Shown here: positions 3,521 through 12,879 of the stretch, piece after piece
Layout: every line of letters starts with the position of its first letter
How positions within the stretch are numbered: position 1 is the stretch's first letter
NCBI GenBank assembly: GCA_963803655.1
Contig: CAWDNR010000006.1
Coordinates: forward strand, 10,222-74,221
Origin: Terriglobia bacterium
Lineage (GTDB): Bacteria > Acidobacteriota > Terriglobia > Terriglobales > Acidobacteriaceae
Direction: 5' to 3'
Length of the DNA stretch: 64,000 bases
Notes under the pieces: model-generated
Database searches by the model: none
What the model was told of the DNA's origin: nothing
What the model saw: the letters and a program-made list of their open reading frames with translations, nothing else
Made by a program: the position numbers and the translations under genes

Positions 3521-3632
3521 AACATCGCCATAACGCTTACTGACCCTTGAACGGGGTTTTGAGCGCTATCGCCTTACGCCAACTAGCGGAAACTGCTGTA
3601 ACTTCTGCCTGTGATGAATATGAGGAGGGGTT

Positions 3633-4034
3633 ATGTCGAGCATCCACAACATTGCGTTCCTCATCGGGCGGGTCATCGCTGGCAGCTTTTTTCTCATGAA
3701 CGGCTTCAACCACTTCGCGCAACTCAATATGATGACCGGATATGCCAAGAGCAAAGGCATACCCGCTCCCGCGCTCGCAGTGGGCGGTTCGGGCGTACTT
3801 CTTTTCTTAGGTGGACTGAGTCTGCTCCTTGGCTATCACCCGACTATCGGAGCGGCCCTGTTGGTGATTTTTCTTCTGGGTGCCTCGTTCGGCATCCATA
3901 ATTTTTGGACGGTTCAAGACCAACAAGCAAAGCAGGGGGAGATGGTCAACTTCCTAAAAAACATGGCCATACTCGGTCTGCTGCTAATGACCTTGGCAAT
4001 CCCGCGGCCGTGGCTGATGAGTCTCGGCCGTTGA
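3633..4034 (+). CDS. DoxX family membrane protein
   Basis: 133 aa. LIGRVIAGSFFLMNGFNHF...GGSGVLLFLGGLSLLLGYHPTIGAALLVIFLLGASFGIHNFW is typical DoxX. Confidence 0.7.
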   Translation: MSSIHNIAFLIGRVIAGSFFLMNGFNHFAQLNMMTGYAKSKGIPAPALAVGGSGVLLFLGGLSLLLGYHPTIGAALLVIFLLGASFGIHNFWTVQDQQAKQGEMVNFLKNMAILGLLLMTLAIPRPWLMSLGR

Positions 4035-4194
4035 TACTAAACAACTGGCGAAACATCGCGATTTCACTCAAACGCTCGCGATTTCGATCTCAGCGAAAAA
4101 TGAGGCCTGACCGCTTCAGCAGAGGATTCTGGGGCCTAGAACGCTTGAAGTCCGGAAATCCCCATCCAGATTGGGTCGTCAGCAATCGAGTAGT

Positions 4195-5556
4195 TTAAAG
4201 TCCCCTAACGCGGTACAGGACGACCCCATGCGATGGAACAACAGCACTGATGGTGCTGCTTGTTTTCTTCGTCTCGCCGGTCCACAGGTCGTGTAAGGAA
4301 TAGCCGCTTTCGTTTTCGGGGAGGCCTACGGTCAATGCTGGAACGGAGACTTCCTCTGCCTTCCCGCCGGTGTTGAACAAACCGACGATCGTGTCTCCGT
4401 TCGGTTCCCTCTTGGCGAACACCTGCTGGTTGCCGGTATTGAGCACTCTTTTCGCGGCGATCGAATCCTGGTCGACAGCAAGGACTTCGGAGTTCTCCAG
4501 GTATTTCTGCAGATCCGTTTGGTCGAGGTGAGTAAGATCGACGCCGAGGATGAAAGGTGCTGCTCCAAGGGCCCAAAGGCTGATCTGAGTCTGGCGCTCG
4601 ACCGGAGTCAGCCCGTCGTTGCTGCCATTTCCTACCTCGATGGAGTCATAGTCATTGAAAGCGCCTGGACCAGCGTAAGGCTGCCACTCCGCCACGTAGT
4701 TGAAGCGTTTGGCAACGTCGGCCCAGCTGGTCAGTGGGTAGCTGATACCGCCCTTTTCGCAGCGATAGCATTCGACGTCGGGCGCGAATTCCCATTGATT
4801 GGCATACTTCATCAAGGTCGGGGCGATAGCGATTGTAAGGTGCCCCTGCGTGACGTCCAAGACCATGGGCCGCCCGCTTTGCCGTATAGCATTCGACCAT
4901 GCCTTAACGTCAGCGGCGTTACTGTCTTTCATGCCGTCAATTTTGATGTAATCGACACCCCACGCCGCGAGCATATCTACCCATGAATTCGTATACTCCT
5001 GCGCGCCAGGCTTGTTGTAGTCAATGCGGACCATGCCCTTGCAGTTGTAGTTGTTCTCCTCTACAGACGGTTCCGCAATCTGGGCAGCCGTGTACGATGT
5101 GCCCTTAATGGGCGTGTTCCGGCTGACTGCCTGCTTCGAAATACCCGGCGTAACATAGATTCCGAACTTCATCCCGAGACTGTGGATGTAGTCAGCGACT
5201 ACCTTGATGCCATCGGTATCTCCCTGGGCCGGGAATCTCGACGAGTCTGTCATCCAGCGGCCATAAGGGTCGACGTTCGGACCTTGCGGTCCCGGACACT
5301 GATACCAAAAGTCGTCGAGGTTTACGTATTGGTAGCCCATTTTTTGCAATCCGAAATCATGCAGGGCGAGCGCCTGAGCTTTCATTTGGGCTGCCGTGGG
5401 ATGTTTGCGGAGGAAGCTCCAGCTACTCCAGCCGAGAACGGGCGTGCGCTCGAGGCCATTATCCTCTGCGCTGGCGTTGTGCAGGATCCCGCCCGCCAAC
5501 AGCGCGACCAGCATTGGTGCTCTCAAGCTGTGTGTCAATTCCCTCAAAAAATTCAT
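4195..5556 (-). CDS. alpha-galactosidase, glycoside hydrolase family 27, secreted
   Basis: 453 aa with a signal peptide. GWSSWSF...YQYVNLDDFWY, YIKIDG and C-terminal beta-sandwich pattern of GH27 melibiase-type enzymes. Confidence 0.8.
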   Translation of the reverse strand: MNFLRELTHSLRAPMLVALLAGGILHNASAEDNGLERTPVLGWSSWSFLRKHPTAAQMKAQALALHDFGLQKMGYQYVNLDDFWYQCPGPQGPNVDPYGRWMTDSSRFPAQGDTDGIKVVADYIHSLGMKFGIYVTPGISKQAVSRNTPIKGTSYTAAQIAEPSVEENNYNCKGMVRIDYNKPGAQEYTNSWVDMLAAWGVDYIKIDGMKDSNAADVKAWSNAIRQSGRPMVLDVTQGHLTIAIAPTLMKYANQWEFAPDVECYRCEKGGISYPLTSWADVAKRFNYVAEWQPYAGPGAFNDYDSIEVGNGSNDGLTPVERQTQISLWALGAAPFILGVDLTHLDQTDLQKYLENSEVLAVDQDSIAAKRVLNTGNQQVFAKREPNGDTIVGLFNTGGKAEEVSVPALTVGLPENESGYSLHDLWTGETKKTSSTISAVVPSHGVVLYRVRGL

Positions 5557-5685
5557 CCCTTTTCTCTATCATAAGCGGCGGGACAAAAACAATTACGCAC
5601 GGCAAGCGGTGCACATACCTGTATTCGTGATTGCTCCTGCGGGACGTGGAGCACGCTGGTCAATTGAAGCAAAATCGCGATTACA

Positions 5686-6654
5686 GTGCGCCGGGATAAA
5701 CCGGCATGAAGCAGAGGATGAAAGTTCCTTACGAGAAAGGAGTAGGGAGCAGTCGACAAGGCTGGGAATCTTGCGAGGTGAAAGTCCTCGCGCCGCCAAT
5801 TGCCTGTAGTCGGGCGGCTAGCAAATCCGATGCGTGCGAAGGTAACGACGCACGTTCTGCTCGGACGTAAACGCCTCAGCTGCCCTGCAGGGAAACTTGC
5901 AGCGGTAGGAACGATCTGGGAGGCAAGCAAACTTGGAGGCCTGAACATAACGGAATAGCTGCAGCCTCGAAAATCTCGTCCGTGGAAAATCGTGTTCGCG
6001 GGATGAAGCGGGAAGCCGACCCGAGCTACTCCAGGGGAAGGCCGATGACGCCGAGGAAGAACCAGGCAAGTGCACTCGGTGGGACCGCCGTGGTAGGGGC
6101 TCAGGCATCTGAGGAAGGATTCGCAGAATAACGTCGAGAAGGTCCCGTTGGCAACAGGGGCTGATGGCAACCTGCAGAGACTCCTCTAACGAGGCTACGA
6201 CCGAAGGTGAGGAGAGGTGACGGGATCGGCGCATGAGTCCGTAGGAGCGATGAATGAGGGGTAACGCCCTCAGAAGAGACGGTACACGTCTCTGCGATGG
6301 AGGTAACGCCGACATTGCGCAAAGGGACTCTGGGTCTTGGTGGTTTCGTCGTTCAGCGGGGTGGTCGGACACAGAGCCGACAATGAACCTCACGTGGGAG
6401 ATGGAACTAGGCCTTGAGCAAACCACGGAAGCTGGGGTGGATTGCGAATCAGCGCTTAAACCTCACCAAACTGGGAAGGCTCGAGGAAGACAGACCAAGA
6501 CTCCGAACCGGACCTTGGGAAATCCGGCTGTCCGGGATTATAGGGGGGCCTCCGGAAACGTAGCAACGGTGGAATTGTGAACCCAACTCGCAATCGAAAG
6601 AGCGGGCTTGGTAACCCTCCACCTACAGCTGGCGCGCTGGAGTTCTATCCCAAC
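5686..6654 (+). mobile_element. ORF-less group II intron-like ribozyme, copy B-prime (969 nt)
   Basis: Starts GUGCG and ends AC. Colinear similarity by eye to 8101..8984. Shared motif CGTAGGAGCGATGAA at 6240..6254. Domain V-like hairpin 6505..6539. Long domain VI helix (6543..6555 with 6637..6651) with bulged A6647 seven nt from the 3' end. No ORF. Confidence 0.6.
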
Positions 6655-6867
6655 CGATCCGCTCGGCCTCGAGTCTTGCGCGGTTACCGCGAGGGACACA
6701 GCGAAGCGTAGATAGAGGATAGGTGGGGTGGGTATTCAGCTCCGAAAAGATGCCATCCGGACGCCGACGCCCTTGTAATGCGCGGAAGGCAACATGAACA
6801 GGCGCGATAGCGCGAGCTCCTGTTCAGTCCGGCGTAGTCGAAGACCCCAGACACGCCGAGAAACTTC

Positions 6868-8050
6868 ATGCACGAGAACCGGGAGACCTCGGAGACACCG
6901 GCGGCTCAACCAGGCCGCAGGTCGGCGGGCGAAGGCCAGTGCCACAAGGCCCGCGCGTACGTCTGCGAGGAGTCACACAGCGGCATAGTGCCTATGAACC
7001 ATTCGAACCAAGATGGAACATCGCCGGCGGAGAGTGGGGAGGGAAGGCCGCTGATCAAGGAGAACGCTGGTCAACCTAACACGTACTCGACACAGAGCGG
7101 GAAGGGCGTGTCACAAGGGCTGGCGGGCGTGCGGAAAGCAGCAGGGGAAAATAAGGAGATGAAGTTCACCGCCTTGCTCCACCATCTGACCGTCGATCTG
7201 CTGCGGGAAAGCTTTTACTCCCTGAAGAGGAAGGCCGCACCCGGAGTGGACGGTGTCACCTGGCAGGAGTATGAAGACGGGCTAGAGGATCGATTGACCG
7301 ATCTTCATGGCCGAGTTCATCGCGGAGCCTATCGAGCGACGCCATCGAGAAGAGTGTACATAGAGAAAGCAGACGGACGGCAACGTCCACTAGCGGTCCC
7401 GGCTATCGAAGACAAACTTGTCCAACAGGCCGTGGTTACCATCCTCAACCAGATCTACGAGGAAGACTTTCTCGGCTTTTCCTATGGATTTCGCCCGGGG
7501 CGCAGCCAGCATCAAGCGCTGGACGCGTTGTCGTACGCGCTCCTGAAGAAGAAGGTGAACTACGTTCTGGACGCCGACATCCGAGGATTTTTCGATAACC
7601 TCGACAAGAGTTGGCTGGTCCAGTTCGTGGAGCATCGCGTCGCGGACCCCCGCATCCTACGGCTGATCCAGAAATGGCTCAACGCTGGGGTGATGGAGGA
7701 AGGCGAATGGTCGAATACGAAGACAGGTAGTCCGCAAGGTTCGGTGATTTCACCGCTTCTCGCGAATATCTACTTGCACTACGCTTTCGATCTCTGGGTG
7801 AACGTGTGGCGCAAGAAATGGGCACACGGCGAGGTGGCTGTCATCCGCTATGCGGATGATGTCATCTTGGGATTTCAGCACCAGACGGACGCAGATCGTT
7901 TCTTGGAGAACTTACGGGAGCGGCTGGGGATGTTTGGACTGGAACTGCACCCAGATAAGACGCGCCGGATCGAGTTCGGTAGATTTGCGGAACAGAACCG
8001 GAAACGCAGAGGAGAAGGGAAACCCGACACGTTCGATTTCCTCGGCTTCA
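6868..8050 (+). CDS. group II intron reverse transcriptase/maturase RT-A, 5' segment (interrupted by intron C)
   Basis: ALLHHLTVDLLRESFYSLKRKAAPGVDGVTW, RPLAVPAIEDKLVQQA, FSYGFRPGRSQHQALD, SPLLANIYLH and YADDVILGF RT motifs. RT-like sequence ends at FDFLGF (8050). Frame closed upstream by TAG at 6835..6837. An alternative start is at 6994. Confidence 0.75.
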
Positions 8051-8100
8051 GTGTGCTGCAGGAGCACACGGATAAGGAGTTCATCATGAACTAATCAACC

Positions 8101-8984
8101 GTGTGAATAAGCTGCGCGATAGATGAGGGTAGGCCCCTGGAGCAGCCGACAAGACCGCAAATCTGGAAAGGTGAAAGTCCTTTCTCCGTCAATTGCCTGT
8201 ATCAGACGGATAGTATATCCGGTGCGTGCAGAGGCAACGAAGCACGTTCTGCCCGGAAGTAAAAGTCTCGGCCGCCCTGCGAAATTTGCAGCGGTGGGAG
8301 CGATCTGGGAGACAAGCAAACTCGGAGGCTTGAACGTAAGAACTGTCCGATGACAACCACGAAACCTCACCGCGGAAAAATCGTGTTCGCGGATGAAACG
8401 GGAAGCCGACCTGAGAGGGGTCTAGGGAAGGCCGATGACACCGAGGAAGAAACAGGCAAGTGCACTCGGTGGGACCGTCGGGGTTGAGGGCCAGGCATCT
8501 GAGGAAAGAATTGCGGAGATAACGTCGGGAAGAACCGTTTCCCAGCAGGGGGCTCGCAGCAACCTGCAAGGACCGCCGGAATAAGTGTGGATACATGAAT
8601 CCGGAGGAGGGAGCTGGTTTGGCGCATGAGCTCGTATGAGCGATGAAGAGGGGGTAACGCCCTTCGAGGTGGTGTTGAACGCCACCCTGGCACGAGTAAT
8701 GCTAGTGCCAGGCAAAGGAGCTCTGGGCACTTGGCAGTCCTAGCATGGTCAACGACGTAAGTCGGAGGAGCCATGATTTAAAGACGAGTCGAGAGGTAAA
8801 CCGGACTGGGTTGGGGCGTATGCGAGCGAGCGCTTGAGTTTCACCCGTCTCGGAAAGGTCTCTCGGGGAAAGGCCAAGGTCAAAACCGGAATCGGGAAAT
8901 CCGACCTTCCGGGATTGCAGGGGGGCCCGAGGAAACGTGACTTTGTCTTATGACAAGGTGCGCGCGCCTCGGCTCTATCCCGAC
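8101..8984 (+). mobile_element. ORF-less group II intron-like ribozyme, copy B (884 nt), nested 50 nt into intron C
   Basis: 5' GUGUG, 3' AC. GGUUGA (8482..8487) is the exact complement of the preceding flank UCAACC (8095..8100). Domain V-like hairpin 8882..8916. Domain VI helix (8920..8932 with 8967..8980) has bulged A8977. No ORF. Confidence 0.65.
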
Positions 8985-9425
8985 CGGGATCGGTTTTCAG
9001 GAGCAGATCTCAAACCACTCCAAGCTGCTGTGGTAAAAGGCCGTGGTGGTGAGCGTTGGAGAAAAAGCGCGAGAACAAACTCGTGCAGGTGAGCATCCGA
9101 GAGACGAACGAAAGTGAACCCTTTCGAAGACGCGTCGTTAAGAAATCAAGGGTCGTCGAAACCAGGAGCGTGAAGCCCACCTGGGACAAGTCCGCGGGGT
9201 GCCTGATGACTGTGCGGACGGCGACCGGCGTAGAGGGGGCGTGAAGCGGATGCAGGCTGTTGCGCGGAACTGCAGGAACCAGTCGCTCTGATGTCAAGGG
9301 AGAAGCACAAGCGGCGAAAACCGCGAGGCGAGCGTACCAATGCGGAGCACTGGGGCGGACCGATTCGTAGGAGCGATGAAGGCTCGTAATGGAGCTGGAG
9401 CAAAGGGATCGGGTCAGGTGGTCGC

Positions 9426-10712
9426 ATGACCGAAGCAACTGGTAACAGGAGGACCTCGATGCGTGCGACAGACAAGCCGTTCAACATCGACAAGAAACGA
9501 GTGTACGAAGCGTACAAAGCGGTCAAATCCAATGGCGGAGCGGCCGGCGTGGACGGTCAGACGATCGAGCAGTGCGAAGCCGACTTGAAGAGCAATCTCT
9601 ACAAGATCTGGAACAGAATGAGCTCGGGAACCTACTTTCCTCCGCCGGTGCGAGCCGTTTCCATTCCTAAAAAGACTGGAGGTCAGCGGATTTTGGGTGT
9701 GCCCACGGTAGCGGATCGCGTGGCACAGATGGTGGTCAAGCAAGTCATTGAGCCGAATCTAGACTCCGTATTTCTGACAGATTCCTATGGCTACAGACCG
9801 AGAAAATCGGCACTCGACGCCGTGGGTGTCACGCGAGAGCGGTGTTGGAAGTACGATTGGGTACTAGAGTTTGACATCAAGGGCCGGTTCGACAACATCG
9901 ACCACGAACTTCTGCTACGGGCCATTCGGAGACATGGGACGTGCAAATGGGCGCTGCTGTACATCGAAAGATGGCTGAAAGCACCGACGGTGCAGGAAGA
10001 TGGAACCAGAATTGAGCGAAACCGTGGTACGCCCCAAGGGGGTGTGGTTAGCCCAATTTTGTCGAACACTTTCCTCCACTATGCGTTCGATCTCTGGATG
10101 GCACGGACTCACCCAGATCTCCCGTGGTGTCGGTATGCCGACGATGGGTGGGTTCACTGCCGGAGCGAGCAAGAAGCACAAGCTCTCAAGGCCGAACTTC
10201 AAGCCCGCTTCGCGGAGTGCCGTCTGGAGCTGCATCCGACAAAAACCAAGATCGTTTACTGCAAAGACGGGAAGCGGAAAGGCAAGTACCCGAACGTCAA
10301 ATTTGACTTTCTCGGGTATTGCTTCCGACCCCGTCTGGTTAGACGTTTCCGGGATAATACGCTGTTCTGCGGATTCAATCCCGCGGTCAGCACCACGGCG
10401 ATGAAAGCCATGCGGTCGGCGATACGGGAACTGAATCTTCGCCATCAAACTCAGTTGTCTTTGGACGACATTGCCCGGCAGCTCAACCCACTCCTTCGGG
10501 GTTGGATCGAGTACTACGGGCGATACGCCCCATCGGCACTGTACCCCTTGCTACGGTACGTCAATCAGACGTTATTGGCCTGGGTGATGCGAAAGTTCAA
10601 ACGCTTTAGAGGCCACACGATCCGAGCGGGCCATTTTCTCCAACGGCTTGCCGCGGAGCGAGCGGCTCTCTTCGTTCACTGGAATCTCGGTATGACCGGC
10701 ACGTTTGCCTGA
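9426..10712 (+). CDS. group II intron reverse transcriptase/maturase (RT-C), apparently intact, no endonuclease domain
   Basis: 428 aa. GGAAGVDGQTIEQ, NLYKIWNRMSSGTYFPPPVRAVSIPKKTGGQRILGVPTVADRVAQ, YGYRPRKSALDA, QGGVVSPILSN, YADDGWV, FDFLGY and maturase-like LLRGWIEYYG. Confidence 0.85.
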   Translation: MTEATGNRRTSMRATDKPFNIDKKRVYEAYKAVKSNGGAAGVDGQTIEQCEADLKSNLYKIWNRMSSGTYFPPPVRAVSIPKKTGGQRILGVPTVADRVAQMVVKQVIEPNLDSVFLTDSYGYRPRKSALDAVGVTRERCWKYDWVLEFDIKGRFDNIDHELLLRAIRRHGTCKWALLYIERWLKAPTVQEDGTRIERNRGTPQGGVVSPILSNTFLHYAFDLWMARTHPDLPWCRYADDGWVHCRSEQEAQALKAELQARFAECRLELHPTKTKIVYCKDGKRKGKYPNVKFDFLGYCFRPRLVRRFRDNTLFCGFNPAVSTTAMKAMRSAIRELNLRHQTQLSLDDIARQLNPLLRGWIEYYGRYAPSALYPLLRYVNQTLLAWVMRKFKRFRGHTIRAGHFLQRLAAERAALFVHWNLGMTGTFA

Positions 10713-10715
10713 TGG

Positions 10716-10789
10716 GAGCCGGATGAGCCGAGAGGTTCACGTCCGGTTCTGCGAGAGCCTCGGGGTGAAACTCCCCGGGGCTACTCAAC
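10716..10789 (+). ncRNA. domains V and VI of intron C
   Basis: 10716..10749 GAGCCGGAUGAGCCGAGAGGUUCACGUCCGGUUC: AGC triad, GAGA tetraloop, AC bulge. Domain VI is GAGAGCCUCGGGG...CCCCGGGGCU-A-CUC with bulged A10783 followed by CUCAAC. Confidence 0.75.
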
Positions 10790-11169
10790 CGCACATCAGC
10801 GGGAAGAACAGGTTAGGGCGGTTCGCAGTGAGGCGCAAGACGATCCGCAAACGCATGGGGGCGAAGCTGCGGGAGATTAAGCAGCAGCTCCGTGAGCGAA
10901 TGCATGATCCCGTGCGCCAAACCGGACAATGGCTCAAATCGGTCGTGCAAGGCCACTTCAACTACTATGCGGTGCCGGGGAACCTCGACAGTCTCGGCAT
11001 ATTCCGGGAGCGGCTAATCGGGCAGTGGTGGCGGACACTTCGCCGCCGCAGCCAGAAACGCCCGCTCTCCTGGGAGCGTACTCTTGCCTTGGCTAACCGA
11101 TGGCTCCCTCAACCGCGCGTGCTCCATCCATATCCTGCCGTTCGCTTTGCCGCCAGTCATCCGAGATAA
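10790..11169 (+). CDS. group II intron RT/maturase RT-A, 3' segment (thumb/maturase part)
   Basis: HISGKNRLGRFAVRRKTIRKRMGAKLREIK...GHFNYYAVPGN...VLHPYPAVRFAASHPR. Joins the codon begun at 8050 (a + cg = ACG Thr). Confidence 0.75.
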
Positions 11170-11243
11170 GAACCGGATGCGCTAATCAGCGCCCGTCCGG
11201 GTCCGCGCGGGGGGCAGTCAGCGATGACTGTCCCTACCGCGAT
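11170..11243 (+). ncRNA. domains V and VI at the 3' end of the RT-A intron
   Basis: 11170..11203 GAACCGGAUGCGCUAAUCAGCGCCCGUCCGGGUC (34 nt, two-nt CC bulge). Domain VI is GGGGCAGUCA-GCGA-UGACUGUCCC with bulged A11236 followed by CCGCGAU. Confidence 0.6.
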
Positions 11244-11418
11244 CTCATCACCGAGTTCGCCCGGAACCCCAACGAACTCCGCACATTCCGAAACAATGAA
11301 GTTAAGCATCTAGAGCAGGCCGGGCATGCCCCGGCTCCCCAACCGAGGCGCTAAGGCGTCCGCGGTGGTACGGCCTAAGCAGGCTGGATGCGGCGATAAG
11401 TCGCAAAAGGAATTCCAA

Positions 11419-11694
11419 ATGTCAGACGAGCGTGAGCTTAAACGTGTACCTCGCTGCCTACTACCAGTGAACAACCTCAACCTTGAACCCGAGTACTTCG
11501 GCGAACGGCTAGGCCGCGGCTACGTCCGTGTGCCCTACAAGGCGTGCGGAGTCGAATATGACCGACGCGAGATTGAGGAGTACTCTCATCCGTTCGCGCA
11601 CCACGTTTCCAACTTTATGTGTCCCAAGGGGCACCTTGGCGAAACGCGGCGGCTCTGGGAGCCGGTCAAGGCTGCCGAGAAAGTGGATCTGTAA
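11419..11694 (+). CDS. hypothetical small protein
   Basis: Internal ATG of the 11326..11694 ORF (MSDERELKRVPRC...). No family recognised. Confidence 0.35.
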   Translation: MSDERELKRVPRCLLPVNNLNLEPEYFGERLGRGYVRVPYKACGVEYDRREIEEYSHPFAHHVSNFMCPKGHLGETRRLWEPVKAAEKVDL

Positions 11695-12126
11695 GGGGAC
11701 GAAGGCTAGGTGTTAAGGCGGCGTGGGAATACCGGAGTACGCGCTGCGGCCGCTTCGGAAGATGCATCGGCCGGATAGTTTCGTCTTGGTGCTTTCAAAG
11801 AGTTCCCTGGGGCAAAGCGCATGGAGGGCGTACCACCCTGAAGCCACTGTGCTCAGAGCGCGGGAGGCGACGCCTGCGATTTTCTCCCGACTCCGTGCAA
11901 GGCTTGCCCCTGCGGTCCCAGCCCCCTGCCGGGGGGCTGGTCCAGTTAGTTCCAACCTGAAGGACTGCGCCACGCCGTTAGTTTCCAGAGCCCGCCTCAC
12001 ACATTAGTTCGGGTACCTGACGGTGGGGGCCGGTTTCTCCAGTATCCGTTGCGGAGAGTCAAGTGACCGATACCCATAGTCGTGCAATCAGGAACCTGCC
12101 GGCCTTCCCGGACAGGCCCGGCTTGC

Positions 12127-12519
12127 TCATTCCCTGCATAGGGGACACCACACGACATGGTACTTCACTTCTTTACTAGCTTCGGTTGCCATCTTGTAAC
12201 GGCGATTCAATTCCTCTGCCAGCTCAGGTGGCACCGGGTGATTTGCTAACGACTCTTTCAAACCGTCATACGCTTCCCAAGCGTTGATTTCCTCATTCAA
12301 CAACTTCTGGTGTTCGGAACACTGTCGCGGAAGGCTCTGTGCACTGTACATAACTACTCCAACGGCGTGCATGCAGATTGTACCTGTTACCCGGCTCACG
12401 GAGGTGCTGGGCACTATTCGTCGTTTCGGGGCCGGGCCGATTGCCAGCCCAAGCAAAAGCAGAAGCAACACGTAGGTGGGAAGAGGGCGGTGCGACATTT
12501 CTGAGATTCTCTGACGCAT
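12127..12519 (-). CDS. hypothetical protein with N-terminal hydrophobic anchor or signal
   Basis: 130-aa ORF with LPTYVLLLLLLGLAIG segment. No family recognised. Confidence 0.4.
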   Translation of the reverse strand: MRQRISEMSHRPLPTYVLLLLLLGLAIGPAPKRRIVPSTSVSRVTGTICMHAVGVVMYSAQSLPRQCSEHQKLLNEEINAWEAYDGLKESLANHPVPPELAEELNRRYKMATEASKEVKYHVVWCPLCRE

Positions 12520-12879
12520 CGGAGTTGAATCTCAGCATCCCAGAAGCCGGGCCCCCTGGCCGGTTCGTGCCACCAAATTGGCGGAAGCCAACTTACGGTT
12601 GGTGGCGGCATGACTTCACGCAGTACAACGCGGGATCTCCAAAGCCTCAGCTGTTTCCAAGAAACAGAAAGCAGCCACATCACAGAGTCACTGACTGACG
12701 GGCGTGGTTCAGGACTCGGAAAGGTCGTGAATGAATGAGATCTTCTCCCTAGCGGCACCCTAGAAGGGGCCTACGGCACAGCGTTCGATTCTTCTCTAGC
12801 AACATCTTTCTATTCCCAACAGAACACAACTCGGAATACCCTAGCATCTGTGACGCCGAATCGGAAACGAGGAAAAAGC

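Follow-up and report, generated by a model that had tools for sequence, protein, structure and literature searches.

Group II introns nested within other group II introns, or twintrons, are known from the Methanosarcina acetivorans nests, from Thermosynechococcus elongatus and from a Trichodesmium twintron (PMC4424553; also PMC2882425 and PMC4649490), and in known nests the members without an open reading frame (ORF-less members) depend on the reverse transcriptases (RTs) of other copies. ORF-less bacterial group II introns mobilised in trans are documented in the T. elongatus family (PMC2882425; overview in PMC4424553), and HYERs (Liu et al. 2024) have been described as class IIC introns that lack an ORF, measure 0.4-0.6 kb and recognise 7 bp (PMC11754743). 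Here we analyse a locus in a 64,000-nt stretch of a Terriglobia bacterium genome (contig CAWDNR010000006.1; hereafter the window, to whose positions all plain coordinates refer) in which an ORF-less group II-type element, B', lies in the 5' leader of an RT-encoding group II intron, the RT-A intron, and a sister copy, B, lies in a further group II intron, intron C. We read B' as a mobile intron copy nested in a complete RT-A intron, and thus as the inner member of a twintron, that probably spread by guide-directed insertion; judging from comparative sequence evidence, we put the probability of this reading at roughly 0.8. Contigs of the window's own genome (G000) carry C-numbers and stretches from other genomes L-numbers, while G377, G155 and G015 are other genomes of the same phylum.

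As in the known twintrons, one group II intron, here B', has entered the RNA-coding portion of another at a specific homing site, in nests that reach several levels deep. Unlike in those cases, it is not a deletion derivative of its host's family but belongs to a separate, cross-phylum ORF-less lineage, which we call B-type; it has GGAGC rather than GUGYG at its 5' end and AAC rather than AGC in domain V, and it sits in the host 5' leader or domain I (D1) rather than in the ORF. With the T. elongatus ORF-less introns the B-type family shares the lack of an intron-encoded protein, residence in genomes rich in RT-bearing introns and recent multi-copy spread via pairing of exon-binding (EBS) with intron-binding (IBS) sequences. 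It resembles HYERs in being ORF-less and multi-copy and in recognising a target of about 7 nt without a second guide, and differs from them in its length of about 0.9 kb, in a full domain VI (D6) with a bulged A, and in showing no preference for an upstream hairpin. The class IIC catalytic triad is usually CGC, whereas that of the B-type family is AAC.

The left boundary of B' is fixed by an empty site. An RT-A-type intron of Acidobacteria gp1 AA128 (L094, QIAN01000264.1), whose RT is 91% identical to that of RT-A, has the same leader with nothing between its two halves (..GGAGUAG^CGAUCC.., or ..AAAGGAGUAG^CGAUCCACUCGG..; a caret marks each junction), the longer read of this junction being ..CACGAGAAAGGAGUAG^CGAUCCACUCGGCCCCGAGUCUUGCG. 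L094 itself carries a B-type unit behind GGCCGCUGAU (at GGCCGCUGAU^G..), where the window, near 7053, has none, and from this reciprocal comparison it follows that the extra first G is part of the element; the window insert thus spans 5746-6654, 909 nt. Copies in the window's own genome were located by BLAST of pieces of the locus and by a family profile. BLAST recovered three uninterrupted RT-A-type introns (contigs C3, C22 and C21; about 1.92 kb, 99.7% identical) in which a 58-nt leader (GUGCGCCGGUUAAACCGGCGAGGUGUAGUGAAUGCAAAAGUCAUACGAAUGUGAAAUAG) runs directly into CGACCCACAUCGGCCCUGAGUC, the homologue of the window sequence from 6655 (CGAUCCGCUCGGCCUCGAGUC), and the profile matched B' over positions 1-909 with 857.8 bits. 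A preliminary description of the locus had placed the start of the unit at GUGCG, position 5686, but this is the 5' end of the host, as 5686-5745 has its homologues in the leaders of uninterrupted RT-A-type introns, and the unit begins with GGAGCAG at 5746. The same description rightly had it end in AC (..UCUAUCCCAAC); the colinearity with B that it drew over the whole length holds for 5746-6654 against B at 8139-8984 (77% identity over aligned pairs), 5686-5745 being part of the host.

With the insert removed, the host is whole. When 5686-5746 is joined to 6655-7200, the sequence is colinear with the C3-type introns up to the RT start, and the resulting 5' region of about 565 nt (the 60-nt leader plus 504 nt after B') aligns throughout with intact relatives; the 5' region of the RT-A intron is thus a normal one, split by an insert. 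The earlier estimate that only 210-340 nt separate B' from the RT-A start cannot stand, the RT start codon lying at 7159. Its two alternatives fare differently: B' does lie inside the RT-A leader, while neither a 5'-truncated RT-A intron nor a short or deleted leader agrees with a 5' region that is whole. The outer intron spans 5686-11243, from GUGCG to ..CCCUACCGCGAU, and the window, C13 and C4 copies together with a degenerate element on C10 lie at four sites that are unrelated to one another except for ..AUCGCGAUUACA/G^GUGCG. Its EBS1 (UGUAAU, 6774-6779) is the loop of an RF02005 hairpin and pairs at 6/6 positions with the exon sequence AUUACA, whereas in C3-type introns the same loop reads AGGAGA and the exon UCUCCU; the pairing thus covaries, and the exon flank therefore belongs to the RT-A ribozyme and not to B'. 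On these comparisons the RT-A intron is complete and merely interrupted rather than 5'-truncated, and with its ends and EBS1/IBS1 intact and an uninterrupted form known, it qualifies as the outer intron of a twintron.

That B' is a complete ribozyme unit and not the 5' half of the RT-A intron, as had been proposed, is borne out by the L094 empty site and the uninterrupted C3-type introns. The preliminary description would have been undone had full-length RT-A-type introns natively held the segment: some do have a B-type unit there (L085, and L055, L057, L079 and L104 from Solirubrobacteraceae), while others do not (the three own-genome copies and the 91% relative L094), and this presence in some and absence in others makes it an insertion and not a native region.

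The consensus fold of 27 B-type members (RNAalifold) gives B' six domains, DI-DVI, and an alignment of the 3' part of 28 sequences, with one member (L110) left out, shows where the fold is constrained. The domain V (D5)-type hairpin keeps a 2-nt bulge and a GAAA-type loop and has compensatory changes in 5/10 pairs; its triad is AAC where AGC is usual in 28/28 aligned members, with the left-out L110 reading AGC. Between 1 and 11 both-side changes per pair occur in the distal D6 helix (alignment columns 51-55/148-152), with 7-11 in three of the five pairs, while the bulged A and UCUAUCCC are invariant; the earlier observation from B and B' that this helix covaries while the bulged A and the terminal motif are kept thus extends to the family. 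In B' the consensus fold leaves the bulged A6647 unpaired, at a distance of 7 nt from the end ..CCCAAC. At the other end GGAGC stands in place of GUGYG, the first base being G in 24/27 members and U in 3/27, followed by an invariant GAGCAG; members of the family start NGAGCAG whatever lies upstream.

Existing models capture little of this element. B' 5772-5950 aligns to the whole of RF02003 (group-II-D1D4-4; GGUGAAAGUCC core), yet scores only 41.9 bits, and B (8165-8339) 42.0 bits, both below the gathering score of 49; elsewhere the same model reaches 74.7 bits on a diverged C10 copy and 98.4 bits on a further intron, intron D. RF00029 has no match on B' at E<=1, D5/D6 included, and no Rfam model covers the rest of the B' unit or its D5/D6. 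By comparison the host is a strong member of RF02005 (group-II-D1D4-6) at 6655-6847, the match itself covering 6639-6847 with 130.7 bits. The description of the unit as ORF-less also holds for the family, in which no conserved ORF was found: internal ORFs agree neither in strand nor in position or length, and in some members no ORF exceeds 72 aa. No RT-bearing B-type member was found, the ORFs of long members being insertion sequence (IS) transposases or neighbouring genes, so that the RT or maturase encoded in domain IV of a typical mobile intron is missing from the family.

The guide by which B' would recognise its target is a loop in domain I. GGAGUAG directly upstream of the element (5739-5745) pairs at 7/7 positions with CUACUCC (6026-6032), and for B, GGCCCCU (8132-8138) pairs with AGGGGUC (8416-8422) over seven pairs including one G-U. 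In a scan of alignment columns against the upstream heptamer, counted from GAGCAG and thus including the element's first base, the best window starts at 6025, with a mean of 6.22/7 pairs against a mean of 2.73 (sd 0.48) over all columns; the register 6026-6032 comes from a position-by-position pairing count over 27 elements. Pairing is kept in 24-26 of these 27 at each of the seven positions across many different heptamers, and drops outside them (15/27 for the first base of the element itself, 12/27 for the eighth exon position upstream and 10/27 for the ninth). At least 6/7 guide pairs are present in 52/54 elements, as against 45/270 control heptamers. No alignment column pairs above background with exon positions -8 to -20, as an EBS2 would, or with exon +1 to +6, as an EBS3/delta or other 3'-exon guide would, and the 39-nt upstream flanks of 36 distinct elements are no more stably folded than shuffled sequences (mean z -0.24). 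The family therefore shares EBS1-type recognition without EBS2 with class IIC introns and HYERs, and does not share their insertion behind the stem-loop of a terminator or attC. A small host hairpin whose loop would receive the insert was also considered and dropped, as folds of the joined leaders were no better than those of shuffles.

These results revise what had been said about the insertion site. The loop GUGGUA (6090-6095) had been taken for EBS1, but the column scan places the guide at 6025-6032 only, and the suspicion that B' no longer occupies a pristine site gives way to a fully cognate one with 7/7 guide pairing. A GGAGCACRC motif, proposed as a homing signal shared by both copies, occurs 4 times in the window against 1.7 expected, a count that 8/100 shuffles reach and that is attributable to chance; with corrected bounds the two copies proposed are not at equivalent places either, one lying in the exon outside RT-A and the other in the leader of intron C. 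The broader suggestion of homing into intron 5' leaders is well founded, as B lies after hairpin 1 of intron C and B' at position +61 of the RT-A leader, and other genomes have units at the same two sites and at others.

The copies of B' are far more alike than the hosts around them. Five complete or almost complete copies in the genome match the family profile, as does a diverged partial copy on C10. Compared with the window copy, the copy on C13 has 1/894 substitutions in the B' core and 13/423 in host segments (Fisher p = 3e-6), and that on C4 has 2/743 and 33/777, respectively (Fisher p = 3e-8); on C13, 28 nt separate the 3' end of B' from the first host difference. The C8 copy, with 3/899 substitutions in the core, is not in an RT-A host: it is an entire B' flanked by genes for a methyltransferase and a glycoside hydrolase, beside an IS110-like N-terminal remnant, and has only ..GAGA-GGAGUAG upstream, and nothing downstream, in common with the RT-A site. 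Across the four B' copies divergence is 0.1-0.3%, compared with 2-5% for the host introns, and near-identical copies in diverged hosts together with the ectopic C8 copy indicate that B' spread recently and independently of its host. A first interpretation of the three copies with like flanks, in which host and B' moved as one composite, was dropped because B' is far younger than the hosts. B and B' are 77% identical and the RTs of their hosts 31% identical, and they represent two separate invasions by two lineages of the family.

On the reading of B' as the inner intron of a twintron, its RNA, with its six domains and with the loop CUACUCC paired to GGAGUAG in the RT-A leader, would have reverse-spliced precisely behind this heptamer and been copied into DNA by an RT supplied in trans, perhaps from among the approximately 20 group II RT genes or fragments of the genome. 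Once inserted, B' would either splice out before the host folds or be tolerated by the host as a peripheral module, and nesting in RT-encoding introns may help it to reach an RT. Several points weigh against this reading. No cognate RT-bearing member of the family was found, and no active group II intron characterised so far is known to have the GGAGC 5' end or the AAC triad. The case for catalytic competence is one of population genetics only, and splicing or lariat formation of B' is a prediction. Gene conversion between copies of the host could also account for the low divergence of B', though not for C8, and the C13, C4 and C8 copies have gaps of 14, 165 and 9 nt, which shows that some B' copies are decaying.

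Three other readings account for parts of these data. One, closest to the preliminary description, takes 5686-6654 as a single ORF-less intron that starts with GUGCG and lies beside a 5'-truncated RT-A intron starting at 6655; GUGCG at 5686 and AC at 6654 do resemble canonical ends, and the degenerate C10 element also joins an RT-A leader to a B-like D1. However, the supposed first 60 nt are homologous to leaders of RT-A-type introns without a B unit, members of the family begin NGAGCAG regardless of upstream sequence, the exon flank AUUACA pairs with the RT-A loop and with no loop of B', and the C8 copy, which has no leader altogether, combines with the L094 empty site to refute a single unit, so that we give this reading almost no credence. 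More plausible, yet still improbable, is that B' is a native or long-fixed accessory domain of an RT-A sub-lineage, an old, non-splicing twintron that moves only with its host. The same host with the insert at +61 recurs in an actinobacterial metagenome-assembled genome (MAG; several copies) and in another acidobacterial MAG, and all three near-identical RT-A copies in this genome have B'. Against this, the B' cores are 10-40x less diverged than the surrounding host segments, the C8 copy has no RT-A host, the site is empty in close relatives, and D5, D6 and EBS1 are under visible constraint; guide-directed reverse splicing predicts recent entry into diverged hosts and into an ectopic site, which inheritance with the host does not.

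The remaining possibility concerns chemistry rather than mobility, namely that B-type RNAs are non-splicing, guide-bearing hydrolytic ribozymes that, like the ORF-less, 7-bp-recognising HYERs (PMC11754743), cut or integrate in DNA by their 7-nt guide without lariat chemistry. The ORF-less, multi-copy state, the single 7-nt guide without EBS2 or EBS3 signal and the altered catalytic triad would all suit such RNAs, but the well-conserved D6 has a bulged A that never varies and stands 7 nt ahead of the 3' end, the hallmark of branching, the elements are about 0.9 kb rather than 0.4-0.6 kb, the class IIC-like preference for upstream hairpins is absent, and precise insertion behind IBS1 is the outcome of reverse splicing. 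We regard this as unlikely, a little more so than the accessory-domain interpretation, and prefer a mobile, nested intron.

Beyond this genome, we scanned one genome per species for a signature derived from B and B' (GCAGYCGACAA, 12-20 nt, GGUGARAGUCC), which occurs in at least 118 stretches across many phyla; the matches listed include Acidobacteriota, Solirubrobacterales, Mycobacterium, Pseudomonadota, Myxococcota, Phycisphaerae, Desulfobacteraceae, Nitrospinota, Entotheonella and others. Among these listed matches there are 39 distinct complete elements, mostly of 876-917 nt, and most members are free-standing. A same-strand RT lies within 4.5 kb of 7/53 members that have at least 3 kb of downstream sequence. 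Units in G377, G155 and G015 have ordinary genes on either side, and as the group II RT that each of these genomes has is only 35-40% identical to RT-A, co-occurrence is uninformative on the helper RT. Within RT-A-type introns, B-type units occupy at least four different sites: leader position +61 (the window, L085 and several copies in a Solirubrobacteraceae MAG); leader position +30, behind GAAGUAG (L112, L133 and L097, the 3' flank in L112 running on as leader sequence in which +61 is unoccupied); within the RF02005 region, behind GAAGCGUAGACAGRGGG (L110, L084, L061 and L024); and just ahead of the RT ORF (L094). A further site lies behind hairpin 1 of C-type introns (B in the window; L088, L100, L120, L132 and L134).

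Several of these genomes have more elaborate arrangements. The Solirubrobacteraceae MAG (MFD01872.bin.2.90; L055, L057, L079 and L104, CAWFKF01...) contains multi-level nests, in which a composite RT-A-type intron that begins AAGCGCCGGGAUAAACC, without GUGCG, and has a B-type unit at +61 is inserted in D1 of other RT-A-type introns behind ..CCAUGCGUUGGG; the outer introns include some with and some without a B-type unit of their own, and the MAG has at least 8 B-type matches. In L100 two B-type units stand in tandem, the second starting at the base after the first (3625-4540 and 4541 onward) and interrupted by an IS66 transposase, and in L091 (oriented 1732 and 2549) one B-type unit lies inside D6 of another (5' flank ..GUCCGGGAUUAUAGGGGGGCCUCGGGAAUG^). 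The B-type 5' flank AACUGUUGAAACAUCGCCAUUACACUG^ in L093 (CAVXWA010000011.1, a gammaproteobacterial MAG) closely resembles the C4 RT-A target AACUGUUGAAAUAUCGCCAUUACA^, which suggests a conserved sequence that may serve several of these introns as a landing site.

At the scale of the locus (Table 1), which we annotated by reading 5000-11000 and 10700-12600 together with Rfam and Pfam matches, four group II elements form a nest on three levels, with B inside intron C inside RT-A, and B' inside RT-A. Intron C cuts the RT-A ORF after FDFLGF. The bounds of B follow from ORF-less C-type introns on C4, in which hairpins 1 and 2 are adjacent without B between them. RF01999 matches 8971-9090, and the CGUAGGAGCGAUGAA-type domain III motif of B' is also present ahead of the ORF in introns C and D.

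Table 1. Features of the nested group II intron locus, in window coordinates.
Feature	Position	Strand	Evidence or remark
IBS1 of host RT-A intron (AUUACA), 5' exon	5680-5685	+	6/6 pairs with UGUAAU 6774-6779
Host RT-A 5' leader (GUGCG...GGAGUAG), outside B'	5686-5745	+	aligns with first 58-60 nt of C3/C22/C21 introns and with L094:5374-5433
IBS1 of B' (GGAGUAG), within host leader	5739-5745	+	7/7 Watson-Crick with 6026-6032
B', ORF-less group II-type intron, 909 nt, GGAGCAG...CUAUCCCAAC	5746-6654	+	L094 empty site; family profile; copies at C13, C4, C8
B' domain I (closing helix UCGAC/GUCGA)	5753-6133	+	RNAalifold; weak RF02003 match inside, 5772-5950
B' EBS1 guide loop CUACUCC	6026-6032	+	column scan and positional register
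B' domain II	6141-6227	+	RNAalifold consensus mapped on B'
B' domain III, contains CGUAGGAGCGAUGAA	6229-6334	+	RNAalifold consensus mapped on B'
B' domain IV stub, ORF-less	6336-6500	+	RNAalifold consensus
B' domain V-type hairpin (helix 6508-6535; AAC at 6506-6508)	6505-6540	+	covariation, 28-sequence alignment
B' domain VI (fold 6543-6651), bulged A6647, plus terminal AAC	6543-6654	+	alignment and RNAalifold
Rest of host RT-A 5' region, EBS1 UGUAAU 6774-6779	6655-7158	+	RF02005; colinear with C3-type introns to RT start
RT-A ORF, first part (RVT_1), ATG 7159 behind AAGGAG	7159-8050	+	Pfam RVT_1 5.5e-37
Intron C, 8051 GUGUG to 10789 AAC (RT 9459-10712; RF00029 10714-10789)	8051-10789	+	Rfam, Pfam
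B, sister copy, inside intron C	8139-8984	+	between hairpin 1 (GAGGGUAGGCCCCU) and hairpin 2
RT-A ORF, second part	10790-11169	+	frame resumes at 10790
Host RT-A domains V/VI, 3' splice site ..CCGCGAU^CUCAUC	11170-11243	+	same end in C15 and C10 relatives

Some further elements accompany these introns. Intron D, a full-length RT-encoding intron of 2005 nt (GUACAUCC...CGACCCUAC) with the 98.4-bit RF02003 match noted above and a canonical AGC domain V, lies inside D1 of the RT-A hosts at C13:232706-234710 and C4:391930-393930, a position equivalent to window 6744/6745; this site is empty in the window copy, and both the C13 and C4 host copies are 3'-truncated. The degenerate 816-nt element on C10 (217723-216908, minus strand) consists of an RT-A-type leader, a diverged B-type D1 (74.7 bits with RF02003; family profile positions 16-375 only) and an RT-A-type D6, and sits at a cognate RT-A target (AUCAAUUACA^..^CUCAUCC). 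Also on C10 (219286-218976, minus strand), a tRNA is followed closely by an ORF-deleted RT-A-type fragment with an AGC domain V. Two ORF-less relatives of intron C on C4, at 543570-544260 (plus strand) and 131500-130890 (minus strand), have gathering-level RF01999 and RF00029 matches and no B-type unit; the latter is preceded by another D5/D6-like pair and an RF01998 match and may itself be nested. About 60 nt 3' of the end of the RT-A intron, and directly upstream of a small ORF near 11420, 11301-11420 resembles a SAM-I/IV riboswitch (38.4 bits against a gathering score of 41.1; E=0.0014), and 11304-11500 has an 88.5% copy outside the window, at C6:2318-2515.

For annotation, these results mean that the locus should be recorded as a complete RT-A intron with a second, nested intron and not as a truncated intron beside another element. 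In a large survey, domains V/VI are found by means of RF00029 (PMC8919778), and pipelines of this kind do not see the B-type family; full-text searches of a limited literature collection returned no description of a GGAGC/AAC ORF-less family, and the lineage is apparently uncatalogued. We tentatively raise the wider possibility that it is a large ORF-less group II lineage of at least 8 phyla, with reworked termini (GGAGC...AAC) and triad (AAC), some of whose members are hyperparasites that capture nascent RT in cis by homing into the host intron transcript (leader, D1 or the region ahead of the ORF). Homing beside nascent RT would explain the recurrence of these units at four or more sites of one intron class. 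For the development of RNA-only DNA-targeting tools, a family of RNAs of about 0.9 kb whose one 7-nt guide is freely retargeted may be of interest. At the level of populations, the near identity of B' copies in hosts diverged by 2-5%, together with the ectopic copy, suggests that a ribozyme with GGAGC and AAC in place of the usual motifs still reverse-splices.

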